33,790 nt of DNA from a virus (taxonomy: Duplodnaviria; Heunggongvirae; Uroviricota; Caudoviricetes): IMG/VR virus record IMGVR_UViG_2529292829_000010, positions 1-33,790 of that record. One strand, 5' to 3'. Positions within the stretch are counted from its first letter, which is position 1, and each line of letters starts with the position of its first letter. The notes under the pieces are model-generated. The model ran no database searches, had not been told where the DNA came from, and saw nothing but the letters and a program-made list of their open reading frames with translations. The position numbers and the translations under genes are program-made. This document shows positions 1 through 20,937 of the stretch, piece after piece.

Positions 1-1020
1 CTACTTACTGACCACAAGCGGCAAATCCAGTGTTGGGGTGATTTTGGTTTTACGATCGTAAATCAACACCTGATTTTCTGTTTTGTGTCCACTGAAAATT
101 TGTTTGTCGCGACTGCTGCCTTCGTAATCTGAAATCCCTTTGGCTTTTATGTCATGGAAGTTGCATCCAAACGGAACGCCGGCTTTTTGCTCGGCTGCAC
201 GTTTAGCCTGATTCCACCAGTTGTTCAGCGTCTTGGCTATTACCTTCTCGCCTTTGGTTGTGTTGATCACATACTCGCATGTGCCGGAAGATACATTTCG
301 GGCTAACTGGATCGCCGTACGTAATCGCGGAGACCATTCCTTGATTTGTTTAGTGCCAGTCTTGTTTTGCTCAATGTAAATCCCTTTATCCATAATATCC
401 TGCCATTTCAGCTCGAGTACATCACCGAGCCTTGCCGCACAAAGATAGGATATCTCCATTGCAATACATAACTGTGGAATTGCTTCCGCATATATTGCAG
501 CATACTGTTCATCGGTGATGTAAACAGTACGGGCTTTAAGTGTGAATTTTCTGACTCCTTTGCATGGATTATTTTTTACATACCCACGCTCGTATCCCCA
601 TCCGTATATACGGCTCAGACTTGCCAGTTCATGGTTTGCCTGGGTCTTGCTCTCAAGTCCTCGCTTATCCATGAAAATTCTTACCTGTTCAATTTTTACA
701 TTATCAGCAAGCACTTTTCCGAATACTGCCAACAATGCCCTTTGATGTTGCCGATAATCTTTTTGGGTTCGGGGGGCCAGTTCTGTAAATGCAGGGGAGT
801 CCATAAACATGTGCCATAATTTAGCTACTGTCATTATGTTGTGGAGTTTTGCTTTTTCCAGCTCATAATTTTGCCAGACTTTAGCTATGCTGGTTTCCCG
901 CACTCTTCCGAGCCCTATAGTTCTTGTGCTTCCTTCGGGTTTCCATACGTAACTGTAACCATTCGATCTAACACGCGGTGGTAGTGCATTATCTTTTTTG
1001 TTTTTTCTTGGTCTTCCCAT
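1..1020 (-). CDS. int: Tyrosine-type site-specific integrase, 339 aa
   Basis: Complete ORF: ATG at 1018-1020, TAG stop at 1-3. C-terminal ...SGHKTENQVLIYDR resembles lambda Int ...LGHKSDTMASQYRD (catalytic His/Tyr region). Terminal position next to a xis-like ORF. Confidence 0.9.
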   Translation of the reverse strand: MGRPRKNKKDNALPPRVRSNGYSYVWKPEGSTRTIGLGRVRETSIAKVWQNYELEKAKLHNIMTVAKLWHMFMDSPAFTELAPRTQKDYRQHQRALLAVFGKVLADNVKIEQVRIFMDKRGLESKTQANHELASLSRIYGWGYERGYVKNNPCKGVRKFTLKARTVYITDEQYAAIYAEAIPQLCIAMEISYLCAARLGDVLELKWQDIMDKGIYIEQNKTGTKQIKEWSPRLRTAIQLARNVSSGTCEYVINTTKGEKVIAKTLNNWWNQAKRAAEQKAGVPFGCNFHDIKAKGISDYEGSSRDKQIFSGHKTENQVLIYDRKTKITPTLDLPLVVSK

Positions 1021-3866: not shown

Positions 3867-4070
3867 TTACGGCGCTGTTTTTAATCCTGCCGGGATTTCG
3901 TTATTATCCATGCGAATAACTTTCTCGACCAGATAACAGTTACCAGGAATTTTCTGTTCTGCTGCGGCAGCCATACATTCTTTCATTGAACCATATATAC
4001 CAGTAACCACATCAACAGGTTCGCCAGTATTAAGAAAAACAGTCAGAGTGAGGGCAACAGCAGTCTTCAT
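3867..4070 (-). CDS. Small membrane protein, 67 aa, YdfD-like by position
   Basis: ATG at 4068-4070 preceded by AAGGA; overlaps the dicB stop (ATGA). N-terminal hydrophobic segment MKTAVALTLTVFL. Identity to YdfD not verified. Confidence 0.55.
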   Translation of the reverse strand: MKTAVALTLTVFLNTGEPVDVVTGIYGSMKECMAAAAEQKIPGNCYLVEKVIRMDNNEIPAGLKTAP

Positions 4071-4255
4071 TGCCAGCGTCCTTTTTGCATCAGGCGTAAA
4101 CGGGCCAGCATTGAAACAATGCATATTTTATTTAATAACTCCCGTTCGTGTTTTCTCTTGTTAATGGCATCTTCAGTAAATACAGGGTTACTGATAGTGA
4201 CACCAATTTCAAAACAACCTTCAGACGTATTAACGTTTGGTAATAACGTTTCCAT
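4067..4255 (-). CDS. dicB: Cell-division inhibitor DicB, 62 aa
   Basis: ATG at 4253-4255 preceded by GAGGA. Protein METLLPNVNTSEGCFEIGVTISNPVFTEDAINKRKHERELLNKICIVSMLARLRLMQKGRWQ matches my recollection of E. coli DicB in length and sequence. Lies immediately downstream of a DicF-like RNA on the same strand. Confidence 0.8.
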   Translation of the reverse strand: METLLPNVNTSEGCFEIGVTISNPVFTEDAINKRKHERELLNKICIVSMLARLRLMQKGRWQ

Positions 4256-4424
4256 TATCGCGTCCTCAACAATGAATTTTGTGATGCGGTGCCTGGTGCC
4301 TCCAGGTGACGTTAACCAGTTAACAATTAACGCCGGATACAGAGAATCCACCCATAACACTGTTTTTGGTTTTAACTGTTCCGCGTGCGCTTAGCCGCAT
4401 TCACCGCATCATAAAATTCACTTT

Positions 4425-4482
4425 AAAAAGGGCGGCAGAGCAGTCACGGAGTAAAACTGATACCGCCAAACGTCACCAGAAA
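4425..4482 (-). ncRNA. dicF: DicF-like small regulatory RNA (ftsZ translation inhibitor)
   Basis: Minus-strand transcript 5'-UUUCUGGUGACGUUUGGCGGUAUCAGUUUUACUCCGUGACUGCUCUGCCGCCCUUUUU-3' matches my recollection of DicF, with a GC-rich 3' stem and U-run. Sits directly upstream of dicB, as in the Qin dicB operon. Confidence 0.75.
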
Positions 4483-5837: not shown

Positions 5838-6485
5838 TTATAGGTTGAACTGTACACCTTTTGCTACGGCAACAATTTTACACTCTGGCGTAAGCAAGGA
5901 TGATTGATAGCGCGGATTGAGAGGACTTAAATACACAAGTTTTCCATCAATAACTAATTTTTTTATAGTCATAGACGGTTCATTTGTAAGAGGATCTGGA
6001 ACTATTACAGCGACGATACTGCCATTTTTATAACTTTCTCCTGGTCTTAGGATCACAGTGGCACCAACTGGGATACTTGGCGACCCTGAGGGGTTATGCA
6101 TAGTGTCATCAGGCATTGAAACGGCAAAATCACCTTCCACTACATCAAAGAATGTGGTGATCCTATCGACATTTCCCATTGTTTTCTCTCCTTCTAAGAT
6201 TAGGAAAGAAATCGCGTCACCCCACGAAAGGTAGGGGATCTTGGTGCCTGGATTGTTCTGCACAAAAGATAGTTCAGGAGACGATACTCCATACAGGAGA
6301 TAGGACTCAGTAGTTCCTAATGCTTGGGCTAACTTACTTAGAGCTTTGCTGCCGGGTTCGTTTAGATCTTTCTCCCAGTACCCTATAGTAACCCCAGTCA
6401 CGCCTGAAAGCTTACCCAGCTCTACTTGGGTGAGTCCCTTATCTTTTCTGAGTTTCTTAAGCCTGATGCCAAGGCTTTCCATCAT
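5838..6485 (-). CDS. cI: CI-type prophage repressor: HTH_XRE N-domain plus S24/LexA-like autopeptidase C-domain, 215 aa
   Basis: HTH LTQVELGKLSGVTGVTIGYWE. C-domain AVSMPDDT and TIKKLVIDGKLVYLSPLNPRY parallel lambda CI NSMTAPT and [21 protein letters not shown] (Ser/Lys dyad). Divergent from the cro-like gene. Confidence 0.9.
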   Translation of the reverse strand: MMESLGIRLKKLRKDKGLTQVELGKLSGVTGVTIGYWEKDLNEPGSKALSKLAQALGTTESYLLYGVSSPELSFVQNNPGTKIPYLSWGDAISFLILEGEKTMGNVDRITTFFDVVEGDFAVSMPDDTMHNPSGSPSIPVGATVILRPGESYKNGSIVAVIVPDPLTNEPSMTIKKLVIDGKLVYLSPLNPRYQSSLLTPECKIVAVAKGVQFNL

Positions 6486-7231: not shown

Positions 7232-7302
7232 CTCGCAATATTCATACCGGATCACTTCCGGCAATTTGTGAGTAAAAAGATTCGGTATCAAAAGAGGTGA
7301 GT

Positions 7303-8343
7303 ATGGCTAACGCCTGGCTCAGATTATGGCATGACATGCCAAACGATCCTAAGTGGCGAACAATTTCCAGGTTGTCAGGACAGCCAATCGCAACAGTGAT
7401 GGCTGTGTATATCCACCTTCTGGTGAGTGCGTCACGAAATGTCACGACATGTCACGGTGTGTCACTACGTGGTCACATTGATGTCACGGCGGAAGATTTA
7501 GCAAGTGCGCTTGATGTGACGGAAGAAGTAATTGATTCAATTTTACAGGCAATGCAGGGGCGGGTACTTGATGGAGATTTGATCAGTGGATGGGAAAAAC
7601 GCCAGGTACTGAAAGAGGACAATGGCAACGTTTCACAAACCGCGAAATCCCCGGCAGAGCGCAAGAGAGCGCAGCGCGAGAGGGAAAAATTACGAAAACA
7701 GAATGAGGGGGCGCGCGACGAGTCACGCATCTGTCACGACATGTCACGACGAGTCACGACAGATAAAGATACAGATAAAGAATTAAACCCCACACATAAC
7801 GCGCGCGTGCGAGAGAGTGCTCCTGCCAGTGAGGCAAATGGCGTGCCGTTGCAAACAGCGGAACCTGATTACCTGGAAGGCCTGAGCGAACCCATCGGGA
7901 AATTTCCGATGACCGATGGCTGGCATCCGTCGCCGGATTTTCGACGACGGGCTGCGCTGTGGGGCGTGGCTCTTCCTGAGCCGGAATTTACACCAGCTGA
8001 ACTTTCCGCCTTCCGGGACTACTGGGCAGCGGAGGGCAAAGTGTTCACGCAGGTTCAGTGGGAGCAGAAATTCGCCCGTCACGTAAATCACGTCAGGGCG
8101 CAGGCTAAACCAGTCAGCAAGGGGGTAAACCATGCAGCAGCACCAGGTGGCACCGCATCACGGGCAGTTCAGGAAATTCGGGCAGCACGTGAGCAGTGGG
8201 AACGTGAAAACGGATTTATCAGCGACGGAAACGGCCTGGAAGCTGTGGGAACTCATGGGGGAGGTTTATTCGAACCGCTGGACCCAGAAGAACGGGGCCG
8301 CACCTTCGAAGCTCTGGATTGCACAGATTGGCGCGATGACTGA
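7303..8343 (+). CDS. Replication initiator (O-like), about 346 aa, with internal iterons
   Basis: ATG at 7303 six nt after AAAGAGG (GTG at 7297 is an alternative). Lies directly upstream of the P homolog. Contains two arrays of GTCAC direct repeats and an AT-rich tract. Confidence 0.7.
   Translation: MANAWLRLWHDMPNDPKWRTISRLSGQPIATVMAVYIHLLVSASRNVTTCHGVSLRGHIDVTAEDLASALDVTEEVIDSILQAMQGRVLDGDLISGWEKRQVLKEDNGNVSQTAKSPAERKRAQREREKLRKQNEGARDESRICHDMSRRVTTDKDTDKELNPTHNARVRESAPASEANGVPLQTAEPDYLEGLSEPIGKFPMTDGWHPSPDFRRRAALWGVALPEPEFTPAELSAFRDYWAAEGKVFTQVQWEQKFARHVNHVRAQAKPVSKGVNHAAAPGGTASRAVQEIRAAREQWERENGFISDGNGLEAVGTHGGGLFEPLDPEERGRTFEALDCTDWRDD
7429..7489. repeat. Iteron array 1: six GTCAC-core repeats at about 10-11 bp spacing
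   Basis: GTCAC at 7431, 7441, 7451, 7461, 7472 and 7483 inside the O-like ORF. Confidence 0.7.
7721..7792. repeat. Iteron array 2 (four GTCACG repeats) plus adjacent AT-rich tract: candidate origin
   Basis: GTCAC at 7722, 7733, 7743 and 7753, followed by AGATAAAGATACAGATAAAGAATTAAA (7761-7790). This resembles the lambda ori arrangement inside O. Confidence 0.65.
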
Positions 8344-10586: not shown

Positions 10587-11273
10587 ATGACCACAATAAA
10601 TACGTTTATGACAGTTGCTGATTTCAAACGGCCTAAATTGGAGCTCCCAAACGGGGCAAACAAACTACTACTGCACTCTTGCTGTGCTCCATGTTCCGGT
10701 GAAGTGATGGAGGCGCTTCAGGCCTCGGGAATCGACTACACCATCTTTTTCTACAACCCGAACATTCATCCTCAGAAAGAGTATTTAATTCGTAAGGATG
10801 AGAATATTCGCTTTGCTGAACAACACGGCGTGCAGTTTATCGATGCTGATTACGACACAGACAACTGGTTTGAACGTGCCAAAGGAATGGAATGGGAGCC
10901 CGAGAGGGGGATCCGTTGTACCATGTGTTTTGACATGCGTTTTGAGCGGACAGCGTTGTACGCTGCTGAAAATGGTTTCAGTGTGATCAGCAGTTCGCTG
11001 GGCATTTCACGCTGGAAAAATATGCAGCAGGTTAACGACTGTGGGCGGCGAGCCGTCGCGCATTATCCGGGAATGGTGTACTGGGATTATAACTGGCGCA
11101 AGCAGGGCGGCTCGTCCCGTATGATTGAAATCAGCAAGCGCGAAAAATTCTATCAGCAGGAATATTGTGGCTGTGTGTATTCTCTGCGCGATACCAATCT
11201 ACACCGCAAATCTCAGGGACGCCCTCTTATCAAAATTGGTCAACTCCACTACGGTAAAGAAGAGAAGGAGTGA
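10587..11273 (+). CDS. QueH-like (DUF208) epoxyqueuosine reductase family protein, 228 aa
   Basis: Motif [11 protein letters not shown] near the N-terminus, plus RCTMCFD and YCGCVY Cys clusters, as I recall for DUF208/QueH. Preceded by two stem-loops and an AT-rich leader. Weak SD, so start is uncertain. Confidence 0.7.
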
Positions 11274-11399
11274 TTTTATGGATCACCTTTCTGATTGATT
11301 TCATATTGGCGAGGTAGCAGGAGTTAAGTAGAATTGCTGCGGGTGCTTGAGGCTATCTGTCTCAGGCATGAACACCAAAAGGCAGATAGAGAAAAGCCC

Positions 11400-11462
11400 C
11401 AGTTAACATTACGCGTCCTGCAAGACGCTTAACATTAATCTGAGGCCATATCTATGCGACAC
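11400..11462 (-). ncRNA. Putative Sok-like antisense RNA
   Basis: Minus-strand promoter-like TTGACC (plus 11491-11496) with a weak -10 near 11466-11471. Antisense to the mok-like start at 11454. Hairpin GCGUCUUGCAGGACGC (plus 11412-11427) near the predicted 3' end. Boundaries inferred. Confidence 0.35.
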
Positions 11463-11513
11463 ATAGAGATTAGCCTCTTACGGACCGAAAGGTCAAGGAG
11501 AAGCAGGCTATGA
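11454..11513 (+). CDS. mok-like leader ORF, 19 codons, translationally coupled to hok
   Basis: ATG at 11454; its TGA stop (11511-11513) overlaps the hok ATG (11510-11512). Confidence 0.35.
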   Translation: MRHIEISLLRTERSRRSRL

Positions 11514-11665
11514 AGCAGCGAAAGGCGATGTTAATCGCCCTGATCGTCATCTGTTTAACCGTCATAGTGACGGCACTGGTAACGAGGAAAGACCTCTGCG
11601 AGGTACGAATCCGAACCGGCCAGACGGAGGTCGCTGTCTTCACAGCTTACGAACCTGAGGAGTAA
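11510..11665 (+). CDS. hokD: Hok/Gef-family type I toxin, 51 aa
   Basis: MKQRKAMLIALIVICLTVIVTALVTRKDLCEVRIRTGQTEVAVFTAYEPEE: single TM segment and conserved Cys pattern, matching my recollection of HokD/RelF. AGGAG 10 nt upstream. Below the 60-aa cutoff of the ORF track. Confidence 0.85.
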   Translation: MKQRKAMLIALIVICLTVIVTALVTRKDLCEVRIRTGQTEVAVFTAYEPEE

Positions 11666-11832
11666 GAGACCTGGCGGGGGAGAAATCCCTCGCCACCTCT
11701 GATGTGTCAGGCATCCTCAATGCACCCGCACTTAACCCGCTTCGGCGGGTTTTGTTTTTTCTGAGCATCCTGGTTTACAATCCACATGCCAGCCTGAACA
11801 ACTGGCACCTGCTGCGCCAGCAGAGAAAACAG

Positions 11833-12105
11833 ATGGCGCACAAGACCAAATTACACAATTCTGATACCGTTCGTGCCAGCAGGCACGGGCGGTGTTCGCA
11901 CGCATTCAAATATGACTGGTATCAGCACGACCCCTGCACTGAAGAACAGGCCGAATGGCTGATTCATAACTACCGCAGACGTGGGTATGAGTTTAGGAAA
12001 GCCCTCAGCCTCGATTATCGTCACTGGATAATCTACGTCAGACTCCCTTATTCCGAACGCCCACCGCGTCCGTCCCGCACATTCCAGCAACGCATCTGGA
12101 GGTAA
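11833..12105 (+). CDS. Hypothetical protein, 90 aa, Rem-like by position
   Basis: ATG at 11833. Position between hok and the YdfU-like gene mirrors the Qin order hokD-rem-ydfU. The upstream part of the 133-aa ORF overlaps the hok 3' structure and is unlikely to be coding. Confidence 0.45.
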   Translation: MAHKTKLHNSDTVRASRHGRCSHAFKYDWYQHDPCTEEQAEWLIHNYRRRGYEFRKALSLDYRHWIIYVRLPYSERPPRPSRTFQQRIWR

Positions 12106-12106
12106 C

Positions 12107-13156
12107 GTGCGGGTATTACTTCGACCTGTTCTGGTGCCGGAACTTGGGGTGGTTATCGTTAAGCCTGGTCGTGAATCCATGCAGGTATTCCATAACGGCA
12201 GAGTGCTGGTTGAACCGGAGCCAAAAAGCATGCGCGGTCTGCCGTCCGGGGTCGTTCCTGCCGTTCGCCAGCCGCTGGCGGAAGACAAATCTCTGCTGCC
12301 ATTTTTCAGCGATGAGCGGGTGATTCGTGCTGCCGGCGGCGCTGGTGCACTGTCTGACTGGCTCCTGCGTCATGTTAAATCCTGCCAGTGGCCTCATGGT
12401 GACTACCATCACAGTGAAACCGTCATACATCGTTACGGTACCGGCGCGATGGTGCTGTGCTGGCACTGCGACAACCAGCTGCGTGACCAGACATCCGAAT
12501 CACTCGGGCAACTTGCTCATCAAAACCTGTCAGCATGGATGATTGACGTCATACGCCATGCAGTGAATGGCACGCAGGAGCGGGAATTATCGCTGGCTGA
12601 ATTATCCTGGTGGGCGGTCCGCAATCAGGTGGCGGACGCGCTTCCGGAGGCAGTATTACGTCGTTCTCTGGGGTTACGTGCGGAAAAAATCCGCTCTGTC
12701 TACCGTGAAAGCGACATCATACCGGGAGAGCAGACAGCCACCAGCATACTGAAGCAGCGCACAAAAAATATTGTGCTACCGCCTCACGCCCACCAGCAAC
12801 AGAACCCACCACAGGAAAAGACGGTGGTCAGCATTGCCGTTGATCCGGAGTCTCCTGAATCTTTCATGAAGCGACCTAAACGTCGCCGCTGGGTTAACGA
12901 AAAGTACACGCGCTGGGTTAAGACACATCCGTGTGCATGTTGTGGTAAGCCAGCCGACGATCCCCATCACCTGATTGGTCACGGTCAGGGAGGGATGGGG
13001 ACAAAAGCCCACGATATTTTCACGCTACCGCTGTGCCGGGAGCATCACAATGAACTTCATGCTGATCCGCTGGCATTTGAAGAAAAGCATGGTTCCCAGA
13101 TTGATTTAATTTTTCGTTTTCTTGATCACGCCTTTGCAACCGGCGTGCTCGGGTAA
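12107..13156 (+). CDS. YdfU-like (DUF968) protein with C-terminal Cys/His cluster, 349 aa
   Basis: GTG at 12107 four nt after GGAGG. C-terminal HPCACCGKPADDPHHLIGHG...LCREHHNELH. Same size and position as Qin YdfU. Confidence 0.65.
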   Translation: MRVLLRPVLVPELGVVIVKPGRESMQVFHNGRVLVEPEPKSMRGLPSGVVPAVRQPLAEDKSLLPFFSDERVIRAAGGAGALSDWLLRHVKSCQWPHGDYHHSETVIHRYGTGAMVLCWHCDNQLRDQTSESLGQLAHQNLSAWMIDVIRHAVNGTQERELSLAELSWWAVRNQVADALPEAVLRRSLGLRAEKIRSVYRESDIIPGEQTATSILKQRTKNIVLPPHAHQQQNPPQEKTVVSIAVDPESPESFMKRPKRRRWVNEKYTRWVKTHPCACCGKPADDPHHLIGHGQGGMGTKAHDIFTLPLCREHHNELHADPLAFEEKHGSQIDLIFRFLDHAFATGVLG

Positions 13157-13168
13157 AAGAGGTTACTG

Positions 13169-13540
13169 ATGCGTATAGAGTTTGTTTTGCCTTACCCGCC
13201 AACGGTGAACACCTACTGGCGACGTCGTGGCAGTACATATTTTGTATCAAAAGCCGGTGAGCGTTATCGCCGTGATGTGGCGCTCATTGTTCGCCAGCAG
13301 CGACTGAAATTAAATCTGTCCGGAAGGCTAGCGATCAGGATTATTGTGGAGCCACCGGATAAGCGCCGTCGTGACCTGGACAATATCCTGAAAGCGCCAC
13401 TGGATGCACTGACACATGCGGGACTGCTTATCGACGACGAGCAGTTTGATGAAATTAATATTGTGCGCAGTCAGCTTGTACCTGGTGGTCGGCTGGGCGT
13501 GAAGATTTACGAAATTACAGGTGGTAACGATGGCACGTGA
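13169..13540 (+). CDS. rusA: Holliday junction resolvase RusA, 123 aa
   Basis: [31 protein letters not shown] closely parallels E. coli RusA [31 protein letters not shown]. AGAGG RBS. Confidence 0.9.
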
Positions 13541-13895
13541 TATTCAGATGGTTCTTGAGCGTTGGGGAGCGTGGGTGGCAAATAATCATGAGGATGTCAC
13601 ATGGCCATCGATTGCTGCTGGCTTTAAAGGATTAATACCGTCGAAAGTTAAATCGCGTCCGCAATGTTCCGACGATGACGCAATGATCATTTGTGGCTGT
13701 ATGGCCCGGTTGAATAAGAACAACAAAGAATTACACGATTTGCTGGTAGATTATTACGTGGCGGGCATGACGTTTATGGCGCTAGCACGAAAGCATGGTC
13801 GTTCGGATTGCTGGGTTGGCCGTTTGTTGCAAAAGGCTGAAGGGATAGTTGACGGCATGTTGATGATGCTTGATATCAAGCTGGACATGGACTGA
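13530..13895 (+). CDS. Late-gene antiterminator Q (short QuuD-type), 121 aa
   Basis: ATG at 13530 six nt after AGGTGG; overlaps the rusA stop. Cys cluster [16 protein letters not shown]. Canonical Q position between rusA and the late region. Confidence 0.75.
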
Positions 13896-15048: not shown

Positions 15049-16098
15049 ATGGCTAATACTGTAAAAATATCCAGTTGTGAGTTAATCAACGCTGATTGTC
15101 TGGAATTTATCCAGACCTTACCGGAAAATTCTGTCGATCTGATAGTCACAGACCCGCCATACTTTAAAGTGAAGCCCGAGGGCTGGGATAACCAGTGGAA
15201 GGGCGACGATGATTACCTGAAATGGCTGAATCAGTGTCTGGCGCAGTTCTGGCGGGTACTGAAGCCCGCAGGAAGTCTTTACCTGTTCTGTGGTCATCGC
15301 CTGGCATCTGACACCGAAATCATGATGCGTCAGCGCTTTAATGTGCTGAACCACATTATCTGGGCGAAGCCGTCAGGGCGCTGGAACGGGTGCAACAAGG
15401 AAAGCCTGCGGGCGTATTTCCCGGCAACAGAGCGCATTCTGTTTGCAGAACATTATCAGGGGCCATACCAGCCCAAAAATGACGGCTATGAGGCAAAGGG
15501 GCGTGAGCTAAAACAGCACGTCATGGCCCCGCTGATTTCTTACTTTCGTGATGCGCGTGAATCACTGGGAATAACGTCAAAACAGATAGCGGAAGCCACC
15601 GGAAAGAAAAACATGGCTTCGCACTGGTTTGGTACCAGTCAGTGGCAATTACCGAACGAGGGTGATTACAACAAATTGCAGGCGTTGTTTGCGCGTGTTG
15701 CGGCAGAAAAGCATCAGCGAGGGGAACTGGAAAAGCCACACCACCAGCTGGTCAGCACATACAGTGAACTGAACCGGCAATATGCCAGCCTGCTGGAAGA
15801 GTATAAATCTTTGCGGCGTTATTTTTCCGTATCGGCTGCCGTTCCGTATACGGATGTCTGGACGCATAAATCCGTGCAGTTTTATCCGGGCAAACATCCC
15901 TGTGAAAAACCGGCAGATATGTTGCGGCAGATAATTGAGGCCAGCAGTCACCCTGGTGATTTGGTTGCGGATTTTTTTATGGGTTCAGGTTCAACGGTAA
16001 AAGCGGCGATGGCACTGGGGCGTTGTGCGATTGGTGTTGAGCTGGAGACCGGACGTTTTGAACAGACAGTCAGGGAAGTTCAGGATTTAATCGTTTGA
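15049..16098 (+). CDS. DNA methyltransferase, beta-class amino-MTase (probably N6-adenine), 349 aa
   Basis: Motif IV IVTDPPYF near the N-terminus and motif I DFFMGSGST near the C-terminus (IV-TRD-I order). No adjacent restriction endonuclease. Confidence 0.85.
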   Translation: MANTVKISSCELINADCLEFIQTLPENSVDLIVTDPPYFKVKPEGWDNQWKGDDDYLKWLNQCLAQFWRVLKPAGSLYLFCGHRLASDTEIMMRQRFNVLNHIIWAKPSGRWNGCNKESLRAYFPATERILFAEHYQGPYQPKNDGYEAKGRELKQHVMAPLISYFRDARESLGITSKQIAEATGKKNMASHWFGTSQWQLPNEGDYNKLQALFARVAAEKHQRGELEKPHHQLVSTYSELNRQYASLLEEYKSLRRYFSVSAAVPYTDVWTHKSVQFYPGKHPCEKPADMLRQIIEASSHPGDLVADFFMGSGSTVKAAMALGRCAIGVELETGRFEQTVREVQDLIV

Positions 16099-16148
16099 AA
16101 CGGATGAGATTGCAGAATTAATTACGCACCATTATTATTCTGCTCCCG

Positions 16149-16224
16149 GCCCTTTAGCTCAGTGGTGAGAGCGAGCGACTCATAATCGCCAGGTCGCTGG
16201 TTCAAATCCAGCAAGGGCCACCAT
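16149..16224 (+). tRNA. tRNA-Ile2 (anticodon CAU, lysidine type; ileZ/ileX-like)
   Basis: Cloverleaf: acceptor GGCCCTT/AAGGGCC, D-arm GCTC-AGTGGTGA-GAGC, anticodon loop CUCAUAA (CAT at 16182-16184), T-loop TTCAAAT, encoded CCA. Close to E. coli ileX as I recall it. Confidence 0.85.
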
Positions 16225-16320: not shown

Positions 16321-16397
16321 GCGTTGTTAGCTCAGCCGGACAGAGCAATTGCCTTCTAAGCAATCGGTCACTGGTTCGAATCCAGTACAACGCGCCA
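16321..16397 (+). tRNA. tRNA-Arg (anticodon UCU, decodes AGA; argO-like)
   Basis: Acceptor GCGTTGT/ACAACGC, anticodon stem ATTGC/GCAAT with loop CTTCTAA (TCT at 16355-16357), T-loop TTCGAAT, encoded CCA. Confidence 0.85.
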
Positions 16398-16572: not shown

Positions 16573-16998
16573 ATGTTTGGTATTTTCAAAAAGAAAACCC
16601 GCAAGGCCATTACCGAAGTGAAGAAGATGGAGAACCGCGACGCAGTGGAGGCGACCGTCTGGGGCGCGTATTCCATTGCATACGCTGACGGCACCTGTGA
16701 TGCGAAAGAAATCGCAGTACTGGAGAAAACCATTGCAGCACTTCCTGCCTTTGCGCCGTTCTCCGGTGAGATTGCCCAGATGAGCGCCAATATCCGCGCC
16801 CGTTATGAAGCATCCCCGCGTTCAGCCAATGCCGAAGCCCTTCGTCAGCTGGCTGATGTCGCCGGTACTGATGATGCAGTTAATGTGCTGTGCCTGTGTC
16901 TGGATATCGCTGACCAGGATGGCATTGGTCCGGATGAAGAAGCACAGCTCAAGAAAATTGCGCAGGCGCTTCAGCTACCGCTGGAGCAGTACCTGTGA
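16573..16998 (+). CDS. TerB-like domain protein, 141 aa
   Basis: Helical pattern of acidic and hydrophobic residues (AYADGTCDAKEIAVLEKTIAAL ... LDIADQDGIGPDEEAQLKKIAQAL) typical of TerB/DjlA-N-type domains. AAGGA 10 nt upstream. Confidence 0.6.
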   Translation: MFGIFKKKTRKAITEVKKMENRDAVEATVWGAYSIAYADGTCDAKEIAVLEKTIAALPAFAPFSGEIAQMSANIRARYEASPRSANAEALRQLADVAGTDDAVNVLCLCLDIADQDGIGPDEEAQLKKIAQALQLPLEQYL

Positions 16999-20445: not shown

Positions 20446-20937
20446 ATGGATCATGAGTTGAAAAAACTGGTGCTGAATATTAATCAACTGGCGGCTTTAT
20501 CTGGTCTGCACCGCCAGACTGTCGTGGCAAGACTGAAAAACATTCGTCCCGCTGGTGGACATGACAAACTCAAGCTATACCGGTTGACCGATATTCTGAC
20601 TGAATTTATGGGGTTACCACCGCCGGTTGCTGAGGGCGAAATGGATCCACATGAACGCAAAGCCTGGTATCAGTCTGAACGTGAGCGTCTTAAGTTCGAA
20701 CAGGAAACGGCACAACTCATTCCGGCCAGTGATGTCAGACGGGAGTTTGCCATCTGGGCAAAAGCGGTCGTGCAGGTGCTGGAGACATTACCGGATATTC
20801 TTGAACGTGACTGCGGTCTGCAGCCTGCCGCTGTGAGCCGTGTTCAGTCCATTATTGATGATCTGCGCGATCAGATAGCCCTGCGGGTGACTGAAACAGG
20901 TGCGGATGATGAGGAGGAATTACAGCAGGAGGAGTAA
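20446..20937 (+). CDS. Terminase small subunit (Nu1-like), 163 aa
   Basis: GGAGG RBS. N-terminal HTH LNINQLAALSGLHRQTVVARL. Acidic C-terminus. Directly upstream of and overlapping the large terminase subunit. Confidence 0.8.
   Translation: MDHELKKLVLNINQLAALSGLHRQTVVARLKNIRPAGGHDKLKLYRLTDILTEFMGLPPPVAEGEMDPHERKAWYQSERERLKFEQETAQLIPASDVRREFAIWAKAVVQVLETLPDILERDCGLQPAAVSRVQSIIDDLRDQIALRVTETGADDEEELQQEE

Follow-up and report, generated by a model that had tools for sequence, protein, structure and literature searches.

Anatomy of a hokD/hokW-type hok/mok/sok cassette in the nin region of a lambdoid prophage

Does the 33,790-nucleotide (nt) stretch of viral DNA analyzed here, IMG/VR record IMGVR_UViG_2529292829_000010 (the window), carry a complete hok/mok/sok type I toxin-antitoxin locus, and which parts of its messenger RNA (mRNA) keep the toxin silent? 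A preliminary description had proposed such a locus, together with a fold-back between two 8-mers on either side of the toxin gene. The window is a lambdoid prophage, and we are highly confident that approximately positions 11306 to 11760 form an intact hokD/hokW-type hok/mok/sok cassette in its nin region, between a QueH-like gene and the DUF968, RusA, and Q genes (Table 1). The cassette is genuine, complete, and apparently functional. Its fold-back, however, is placed elsewhere than first proposed, as set out below.

The toxin gene falls below the default threshold of the listing of open reading frames (ORFs), which is 60 amino acids (aa). Its 51-aa product, MKQRKAMLIALIVICLTVIVTALVTRKDLCEVRIRTGQTEVAVFTAYEPEE, matches the Pfam family HOK_GEF (PF01848) over residues 6 to 47 with 82.9 bits against a cut-off of 22 (E = 1.2e-23), and PHROG 251, "MokW-like host killing," with E = 2.7e-32. 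The peptide is identical to Escherichia coli HokD at 50 of 51 residues, Q4R being the sole change, and this near-identity is accompanied by a matching prophage position, as expected of a HokD orthologue. RefSeq applies the label hokD both to near-identical E. coli DNA adjoining QueH and to a protein one residue away. A GGAG at 11497 to 11500 serves as the hok Shine-Dalgarno (SD) sequence. Upstream of the ORF, Rfam family RF01794 ("sok") matches the plus strand from 11341 to 11512 with 106.7 bits (gathering score, 59). Since this match spans the full model (positions 1 to 157) on the plus strand and ends at the hok AUG, the model describes the hok mRNA leader, with the Sok antisense RNA lying within it. 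The preliminary description had called a 51-aa Hok-family ORF and assigned the locus to the hok/mok/sok type I systems, naming HokD and the Rfam models as checks; Pfam, PHROG 251, RF01794, the single-residue distance from HokD, and the RefSeq hokD label on near-identical loci all agree with it.

Where does the transcript begin and end? The hok promoter is the only sigma-70-like plus-strand site called between 11200 and 11850. Its -10 hexamer lies 6 to 7 nt 5' of GGGTGC and is kept in loci with unrelated -35 regions. The predicted +1 nucleotide agrees with the numbering of plasmid R1: counting from GGCGCUUGAGG in R1 gives the published positions G4/C5/T6, A70, G105/A106, T117/G118, and G176, and the window aligns there. 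In an alignment of 31 loci, the conserved block opens sharply with the -10 hexamer and GGGTGCTTGAGGC and extends as far as fbi and the terminator. Likewise, homology among cassettes in unrelated phages stops at the hok terminator. Modeled from 11341 to 11758, the full-length mRNA has a minimum free energy (MFE) of -175.1 kcal/mol (z = -7.8).

Two observations concern this part of the cassette. A mechanically listed 133-aa ORF with a GTG start (11704 to 12105, plus strand) overlaps the hok fbi and terminator; its start is probably the ATG at 11833, giving a 90-aa version that matches PHROG 1212 and corresponds in position to a RefSeq 92-aa hypothetical protein (locus L001, 4585 to 4863). Further, two copies that share the upstream flank of the window (L011 and L012, from E. 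coli and Shigella flexneri, approximately 1286 to 1761) have lost 10 nt between the hok -35 and -10 hexamers; their Hok C terminus is altered, and they carry no terminator hairpin. These copies are probably decaying.

The preliminary description had identified the fold-back elements, tac and fbi, with the 8-mers TGGCGAGG (11307 to 11314) and CCTCGCCA (11688 to 11695). The two are indeed perfectly complementary, but the role given to them does not hold. TGGCGAGG overlaps the -35 hexamer of the promoter that sets the +1 at about 11341, which places it outside the transcript, on the upstream side. Shuffled sequences yield a perfect 8-nt complement joining the 5' zone to the 3' untranslated region about 6% of the time. 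When 29 distinct hok loci are compared, the two 8-mers pair in 37.8% of cells, a level reached or exceeded by 479 of 500 shuffles, and they do no better than slid controls. TGGCGAGG is present in 5 of the 31 aligned loci, those with the upstream flank of the window, whereas the CCTCGCCA region is present in all 31. CCTCGCCA is fully used as the 3' arm of a local 10-bp hairpin, closed by a GAAA loop, just 3' of the hok stop codon. This hairpin (-22.5 kcal/mol, z = -4.7) occurs in all aligned loci, with 81 to 96% of cells paired and with GC/AU and G·U exchanges. The 3' arm of L002 has changed along with the local 5' arm and not with the upstream 8-mer. By analogy with R1, the hairpin likely is the 3'-terminal stem-loop that would protect the processed mRNA from exonucleases. 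For the 8-mers to be the silencing fold-back, the hok mRNA would have to start at or before 11307. Their perfect complementarity in the window speaks for this, but given the evidence above, and an MFE structure that joins the 5' end of the RNA to 11715 to 11727 rather than to 11688 to 11695, we consider it highly improbable.

The 12-bp fold-back in that MFE structure pairs 11341 to 11352 with 11715 to 11727, directly 5' of the terminator. Of 40 loci, 38 show the same pairing, with the fbi equivalent always 45 to 56 nt after the hok stop codon. Compensatory changes among them are GGGUGC/GCACCC versus GGGCGC/GCGCCC in Photorhabdus and Pantoea, UUGAGG/CCUCAA versus UUGAGA/UCUCAA, UUGAAG/CUUCA, and the GGCGCUU/AAGCGCC of R1. 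In the 31-locus alignment, 89.9% of tac/fbi cells are paired, and 3 of the 12 pairs have changed on both sides. Taken together, tac/fbi and the local hairpin are paired in 88.9% of cells, compared with 43 to 53% for slid controls, and none of 500 shuffles scores as high. In silico folding and comparative covariation thus identify these two segments as the true tac and fbi in the modeled RNA.

The remaining elements can be placed in the same predicted structures. In the full-length MFE structure, 11396 to 11398 and 11400 to 11402 of ucb pair with 11444 to 11446 and 11440 to 11442, masking the SD of mok, the leader ORF. In an RNA trimmed at its 3' end, modeled as 11341 to 11700, mRNA nt 1 to 8 (tac) instead pair with nt 54 to 60 (ucb), and 11442 to 11446 pair with 11473 to 11477 (dcb). 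Thermodynamic prediction thus gives a switch upon 3' trimming, from tac/fbi plus ucb/SD to tac/ucb plus SD/dcb. Within dcb, G11473, C11475, and C11477 are invariant across the 31 loci, and the other two positions are at least 90% conserved. The first 32 nt of the transcript form a predicted metastable hairpin that holds tac, which pairs there with 11359 to 11369. At each step the predicted folds track the published R1 model, in which mutagenesis backs tac, ucb, the need for mok up to the hok initiation region, and the protective 3' stem-loop. Compared with the Rfam consensus and with hokC-type loci, the window has 16 nt more in the loop that the ucb/mok-SD stem encloses, an extra hairpin (11413 to 11428, GCGTCCTGCAAGACGC) that lengthens the predicted Sok stem as well.

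Translation of Hok would depend on the mok leader. As first described, this is a 19-codon ORF whose stop codon overlaps the hok ATG. Its SD, as (C/T)GAGG, is conserved in all intact loci, and all ten E. coli genomes listed share the 80 bases with the leader (11436 to 11515) at 100% identity; as many as 777 records reach 99% identity or more in their best match, and some of these matches may be partial. Among close relatives, the mok start is found at -57, -58, or -56 counted from the hok ATG, which yields three layouts while the start codon and SD position are kept: an in-frame N-terminal extension of Hok (the majority), a long overlap in the +1 frame (R1-like), and the 19-codon ATGA form. The last occurs in the window, in L057, and independently in the hokC-type loci L015 and L016 (Escherichia ruysiae and Escherichia whittamii). 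These layouts were noted in the window, L001, L055, L057, L015, L016, and others, with at least two origins of the 19-codon form. For R1, it is enough that mok is translated as far as the hok translation initiation region, over its first 19 codons (PMC9841398). The variation in layout fits this result, and three interchangeable layouts give it support from natural variation. A more speculative idea, to which we give little credence, is that the recurrent ATGA form represents a naturally occurring "minimal mok" with tighter coupling of termination to reinitiation.

The minus-strand TTGACC and small hairpin of the preliminary description are both present, and the position it gave for the putative antisense promoter was right. 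The hairpin of the predicted Sok RNA folds with -31.9 kcal/mol (z = -6.0). From 5' to 3', the RNA would consist of an unpaired leader able to base-pair with the mok AUG region, then the long hairpin, and finally a U-rich tail, GGGGCUUUUCUCU. A block reading TTG(A)CC ... GTAAGAGGC-TAAxCT is conserved in most of 32 loci. The putative sok promoter lies at the position homologous to that of R1, which we take to be TTGCGC-17-TATCCT. Sok of R1 is 64 nt long. In a relative, mutation has confirmed the sokW promoter (PMC8621323).

Table 1. Position of the cassette elements and of neighboring prophage features in the window
Feature	Position	Strand	Basis or remarks
hok cassette	~11306-11760		
hok promoter	11306-11334	+	Promoter scan; -35 TTGGCG 11306-11311, 17-nt spacer, -10 TAGAAT 11329-11334
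Full-length mok-hok mRNA (predicted)	11341-11758	+	~418 nt; predicted +1 G11341; RF01794 position 1 aligns to 11341
tac	11341-11352	+	Folds, conservation; 5' end of mRNA, GGGUGCUUGAGG
ucb (anti-SD)	11395-11402	+	Folds; homologous to R1 A70-C75; AGCCCCAG
mok SD	11442-11445	+	GAGG; 8 nt (11446-11453) before ATG 11454; equals R1 G105-G108
mok leader ORF	11454-11513	+	19 codons; ATG 11454; stop TGA 11511-11513 overlaps hok ATG as ATGA
dcb	11473-11477	+	GCCUC; pairs with mok SD in truncated, Sok-accessible RNA (predicted)
hok toxin gene	11510-11665 (including stop codon)	+	Pfam, PHROG, HokD comparison, RefSeq; 51 aa, HokD with Q4R
Local 3' hairpin	11672-11695	+	Folds, conservation; 10 bp
fbi	11715-11727	+	Folds, covariation; CCUCAA-U-GCACCC
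Intrinsic terminator of hok mRNA	11734-11760	+	Only plus-strand terminator called in region; AACCCGC-TTCG-GCGGGTT (11734-11751), then T run
sok promoter (putative)	11467-11496	-	Position and conservation; -35 TTGACC 11496-11491, 18-nt spacer, -10 TAATCT 11472-11467
Sok RNA (predicted)	11384-11459	-	Homology to R1 Sok position, fold; ~70-76 nt, approximate ends
Integrase	1-1020	-	
DicF antisense small RNA	4430-4481	-	Full-length Rfam match, 76.7 bits; marks Qin/Rac-like dic region
CI-like repressor	5838-6485	-	
Replication genes, e.g., DnaT-domain protein	7297-8343		
QueH-like gene	10587-11273	+	PF02677, E = 1.6e-65; PHROG 3217, function unknown
90-aa ORF	11833-12105		
DUF968	12107-13156		
RusA	13169-13540		
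Q antiterminator	13521-13895		
DNA methylase	15049-16098		
Prophage tRNA-Met(CAT)	16148-16223	+	3' of Q antiterminator and DNA methylase
Prophage tRNA-Arg(TCT)	16321-16397	+	3' of Q antiterminator and DNA methylase
ORF with weak TerB-domain match	16573-16998	+	E = 1.2e-07; just after prophage tRNAs
Terminase	20937-23039		

How would these elements act together? Following the R1 paradigm, transcription from the hok promoter would produce a stable mRNA of about 418 nt. In the nascent RNA, the 5' tac would be held in the metastable hairpin; once the RNA is full length, tac would pair with fbi and ucb would mask the mok SD, allowing neither translation nor Sok binding. Slow trimming of the 3' end back to the local hairpin would then remove fbi and lead to tac/ucb and mok SD/dcb pairing. 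If Sok is present, this unstable antisense RNA (minus strand, about 11459 to 11384) would bind the processed RNA and bring about its destruction. Once Sok has disappeared, the mok leader would be translated, and ribosomes would terminate at the ATGA and start on Hok, presumably a 51-aa inner-membrane toxin. By analogy, the likely role in the prophage is release of the toxin when the supply of Sok stops, upon loss of the element or upon induction. In the related hokW-sokW locus of Sakai prophage 5 (Sp5) of enterohemorrhagic E. coli (EHEC) O157:H7, HokW is toxic and SokW, expressed from its own promoter, neutralizes it (PMC8621323). Mitomycin C removes SokW in a RecA-dependent manner, deletion of the locus halves phage release, and hokW-sokW hastens lysis and phage release on induction.

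A separate observation on the toxin ORF concerns the Tyr47 codon, where a UACG at 11648 to 11651 on the plus strand is a candidate site for TadA A-to-I editing (A11649, Y47C). In K-12, 6% of hokD mRNA is reported to undergo A-to-I editing at the equivalent codon, which changes Tyr to Cys (PMC12214031). The surroundings of the codon are identical to those in L008, a K-12-type truncated hokD locus, and A11649 to A11653 are unpaired in the predicted global fold. A local hairpin resembling the tRNA-Arg2 anticodon arm was considered for the UACG and rejected, as no stable local hairpin is predicted there. Editing to Y47C, if it occurs, would create a second periplasmic cysteine in Hok.

Several findings weigh against an intact, working cassette. 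Hok subfamily and HokA equivalog models of NCBIfam score below their curated cut-offs (NF007279, 48.4 versus 73; NF007290, 38.2 versus 89); these models represent other Hok subfamilies and were not used for naming. The tac/fbi core is nearly invariant within Escherichia, and most of the covariation comes from distant loci that were paired by energy search. On the minus strand, the consensus promoter scan did not call the sok promoter, whose -10 hexamer, TAATCT, matches 3 of 6 consensus positions and whose 18-nt spacer likewise makes it weak by consensus. Because the scan left it uncalled, we infer Sok expression and assign the promoter by positional homology and conservation. Moreover, many chromosomal hok loci are inactive. 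The locus might therefore be a decayed relic like the chromosomal hok loci of K-12, most of which are regarded as inactive, with the ORF and motifs persisting while the toxin is never made; the imperfect hok and sok promoters and the promoter deletion and lost terminator of L011 and L012 would fit such decay. We nevertheless consider this unlikely. All regulatory elements of the R1 model are present and are predicted to fold correctly, and the differences from relatives in the mok-start hairpin leave its stem mostly paired (8 of 9 pairs by our reading). The Hok ORF is intact at one residue from HokD, the leader is invariant in the ten genomes cited above, and the cassette contains no insertion sequence element or rearrangement; K-12 hokD, by contrast, is reduced to 11496 to 11759.

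Granted an intact cassette, it might serve mainly as an abortive-infection defense or prophage-addiction module rather than as an aid to lysis on induction. Post-segregational killing is the classical role of such systems, and we hold this reading to be possible, if the less favored one: the sole experiment on a lambdoid-prophage copy points to induction and lysis, and no enrichment of hok near defense systems was found. The sequence does not separate defense, addiction, and lysis roles, which are not mutually exclusive. Returning to induction, we also considered whether the layout itself couples toxin release to it, with transcription through the cassette depleting Sok. QueH, hok, and the other genes of the nin region all run in one direction, and a terminator scan found no terminator between QueH and hok; antiterminated early transcription could therefore cross the cassette and collide with the convergent sok promoter. 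This coupling is a speculative idea to which we give little credence. If true, it would explain the RecA-dependent loss of SokW in Sp5, and 5'-extended hok RNAs would arise in which TGGCGAGG, otherwise untranscribed, and the 5' arm of the protective 3' hairpin could be competitors.

The preliminary description had contrasted the position beside QueH with that of hokD beside relBE in Qin. That contrast does not mark this copy as unusual: contiguous, annotated QueH-hokD pairs occur in 741 of 5,426 complete E. coli genomes, the order of genes downstream is the same in Qin, and hokD of K-12 is a truncated copy. The QueH-like gene is a common nin-region passenger adjoining hok, and some copy of the cassette is found in 4,956 of the 5,426 genomes. 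In another E. coli prophage, a 98.6% identical cassette lies behind a different gene; the unit is modular. A blastn search of plasmids for distant cassettes returned copies of the hokD type, P1-like ones among them, but missed R1-type hok, and the R1-type loci were retrieved by a search with the Hok protein. Hok peptides 95 to 98% identical to that of the window occur in L013 (Acinetobacter idrijaensis, 275 nt), L022 (Xanthomonas pisi, 431 nt), and L054 (a metagenome-assembled genome), and H27 ("Actinobacillus phage") matches the cassette at 96.3% nucleotide identity. These are tiny contigs or records from unrelated taxa, and they look like E. coli contamination or misassignment in assemblies.

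The cassette is already known; in E. coli, thousands of genomes carry it under the routine annotation hokD. The hok/sok loci of lambdoid prophages have been cataloged (PHROG 251 and RefSeq hokD), the close relative hokW-sokW has been characterized experimentally, and a 2026 preprint counts 44,248 Hok homologues, enriched in prophages. What this analysis adds is corrective: an exact map of the elements of this allele with the fold-back placed correctly, and the recognition that hokD of K-12 is a 5'-truncated derivative of a cassette of this type.

Among named systems, the chromosomal loci of the hokC/mokC/sokC (gef) type (L014 to L020) share with the window the RF01794 leader family, the tac GGGUGCUUGAGG, and the fbi CUUCAACGCACCC. 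Their proteins are about 80% identical to Hok of the window, they lack the 16-nt insertion hairpin, and their mok is usually an in-frame extension, the exceptions being L015 and L016 with the 19-codon ATGA form. The hok/mok/sok (parB) locus of plasmid R1 matches the window in the order and spacing of its elements (+1, tac, ucb, 3' hairpin, fbi, and terminator): counted from +1 in R1 and the window, respectively, the mok SD lies at nt 105 and 102, the mok AUG at 116 and 114, and the hok AUG at 174 and 170. R1 Sok, like the Sok predicted here, is antisense across the mok start. The R1 system differs in being plasmid-borne, in its tac and fbi sequences, and in a 70-codon mok that overlaps hok in the +1 frame, and R1 Hok is 44% identical to HokW, which is identical or nearly so to Hok of the window.

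For hokW-sokW of Sp5, the comparison used a sequence proxy, L059 from the Stx2a-converting phage Stx2_14040, which may not be the Sp5 copy. In L059, as in the window, the cassette lies in a lambdoid nin region 5' of a small ORF, DUF968 (YdfU), RusA, and Q. Its 51-aa Hok is identical to HokD and one residue from that of the window, and the two loci are alike in the hok -10 hexamer, tac, fbi, local hairpin, terminator, and sok -35 TTGACC. The 16-nt extra hairpin of the ucb/SD stem is absent from L059, whose mok is an in-frame 70-codon extension, annotated as "gef," rather than 19 codons. Its upstream neighbor is a Paa/AdfO-like gene in place of QueH, and nucleotide identity is about 90%.

HokD (RelF) of K-12 Qin also differs from Hok of the window by one residue, but the homology of the two loci is confined to 11496 to 11759 (98.1% nucleotide identity), which covers the hok SD, ORF, hairpin, fbi, and terminator. 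Everything 5' of 11496 is missing from the K-12 locus: the hok promoter, tac, ucb, the mok start, and the sok gene with its -10 hexamer. What is left is fused behind relBE, and the relE-hokD junction (L061, K-12 Qin, 4025 to 4289) falls inside the interval formed by the sok -35 hexamer and the hok SD. Downstream, the Qin order relB-relE-hokD-rem-ydfU(DUF968)-Q places a small ORF, YdfU/DUF968, and Q as in the window. Since homology is limited to this 3' portion, hokD of K-12 is a 5'-truncated derivative of a window-type cassette, and the view in the literature that K-12 hokD lacks canonical components is consistent with such a truncation.

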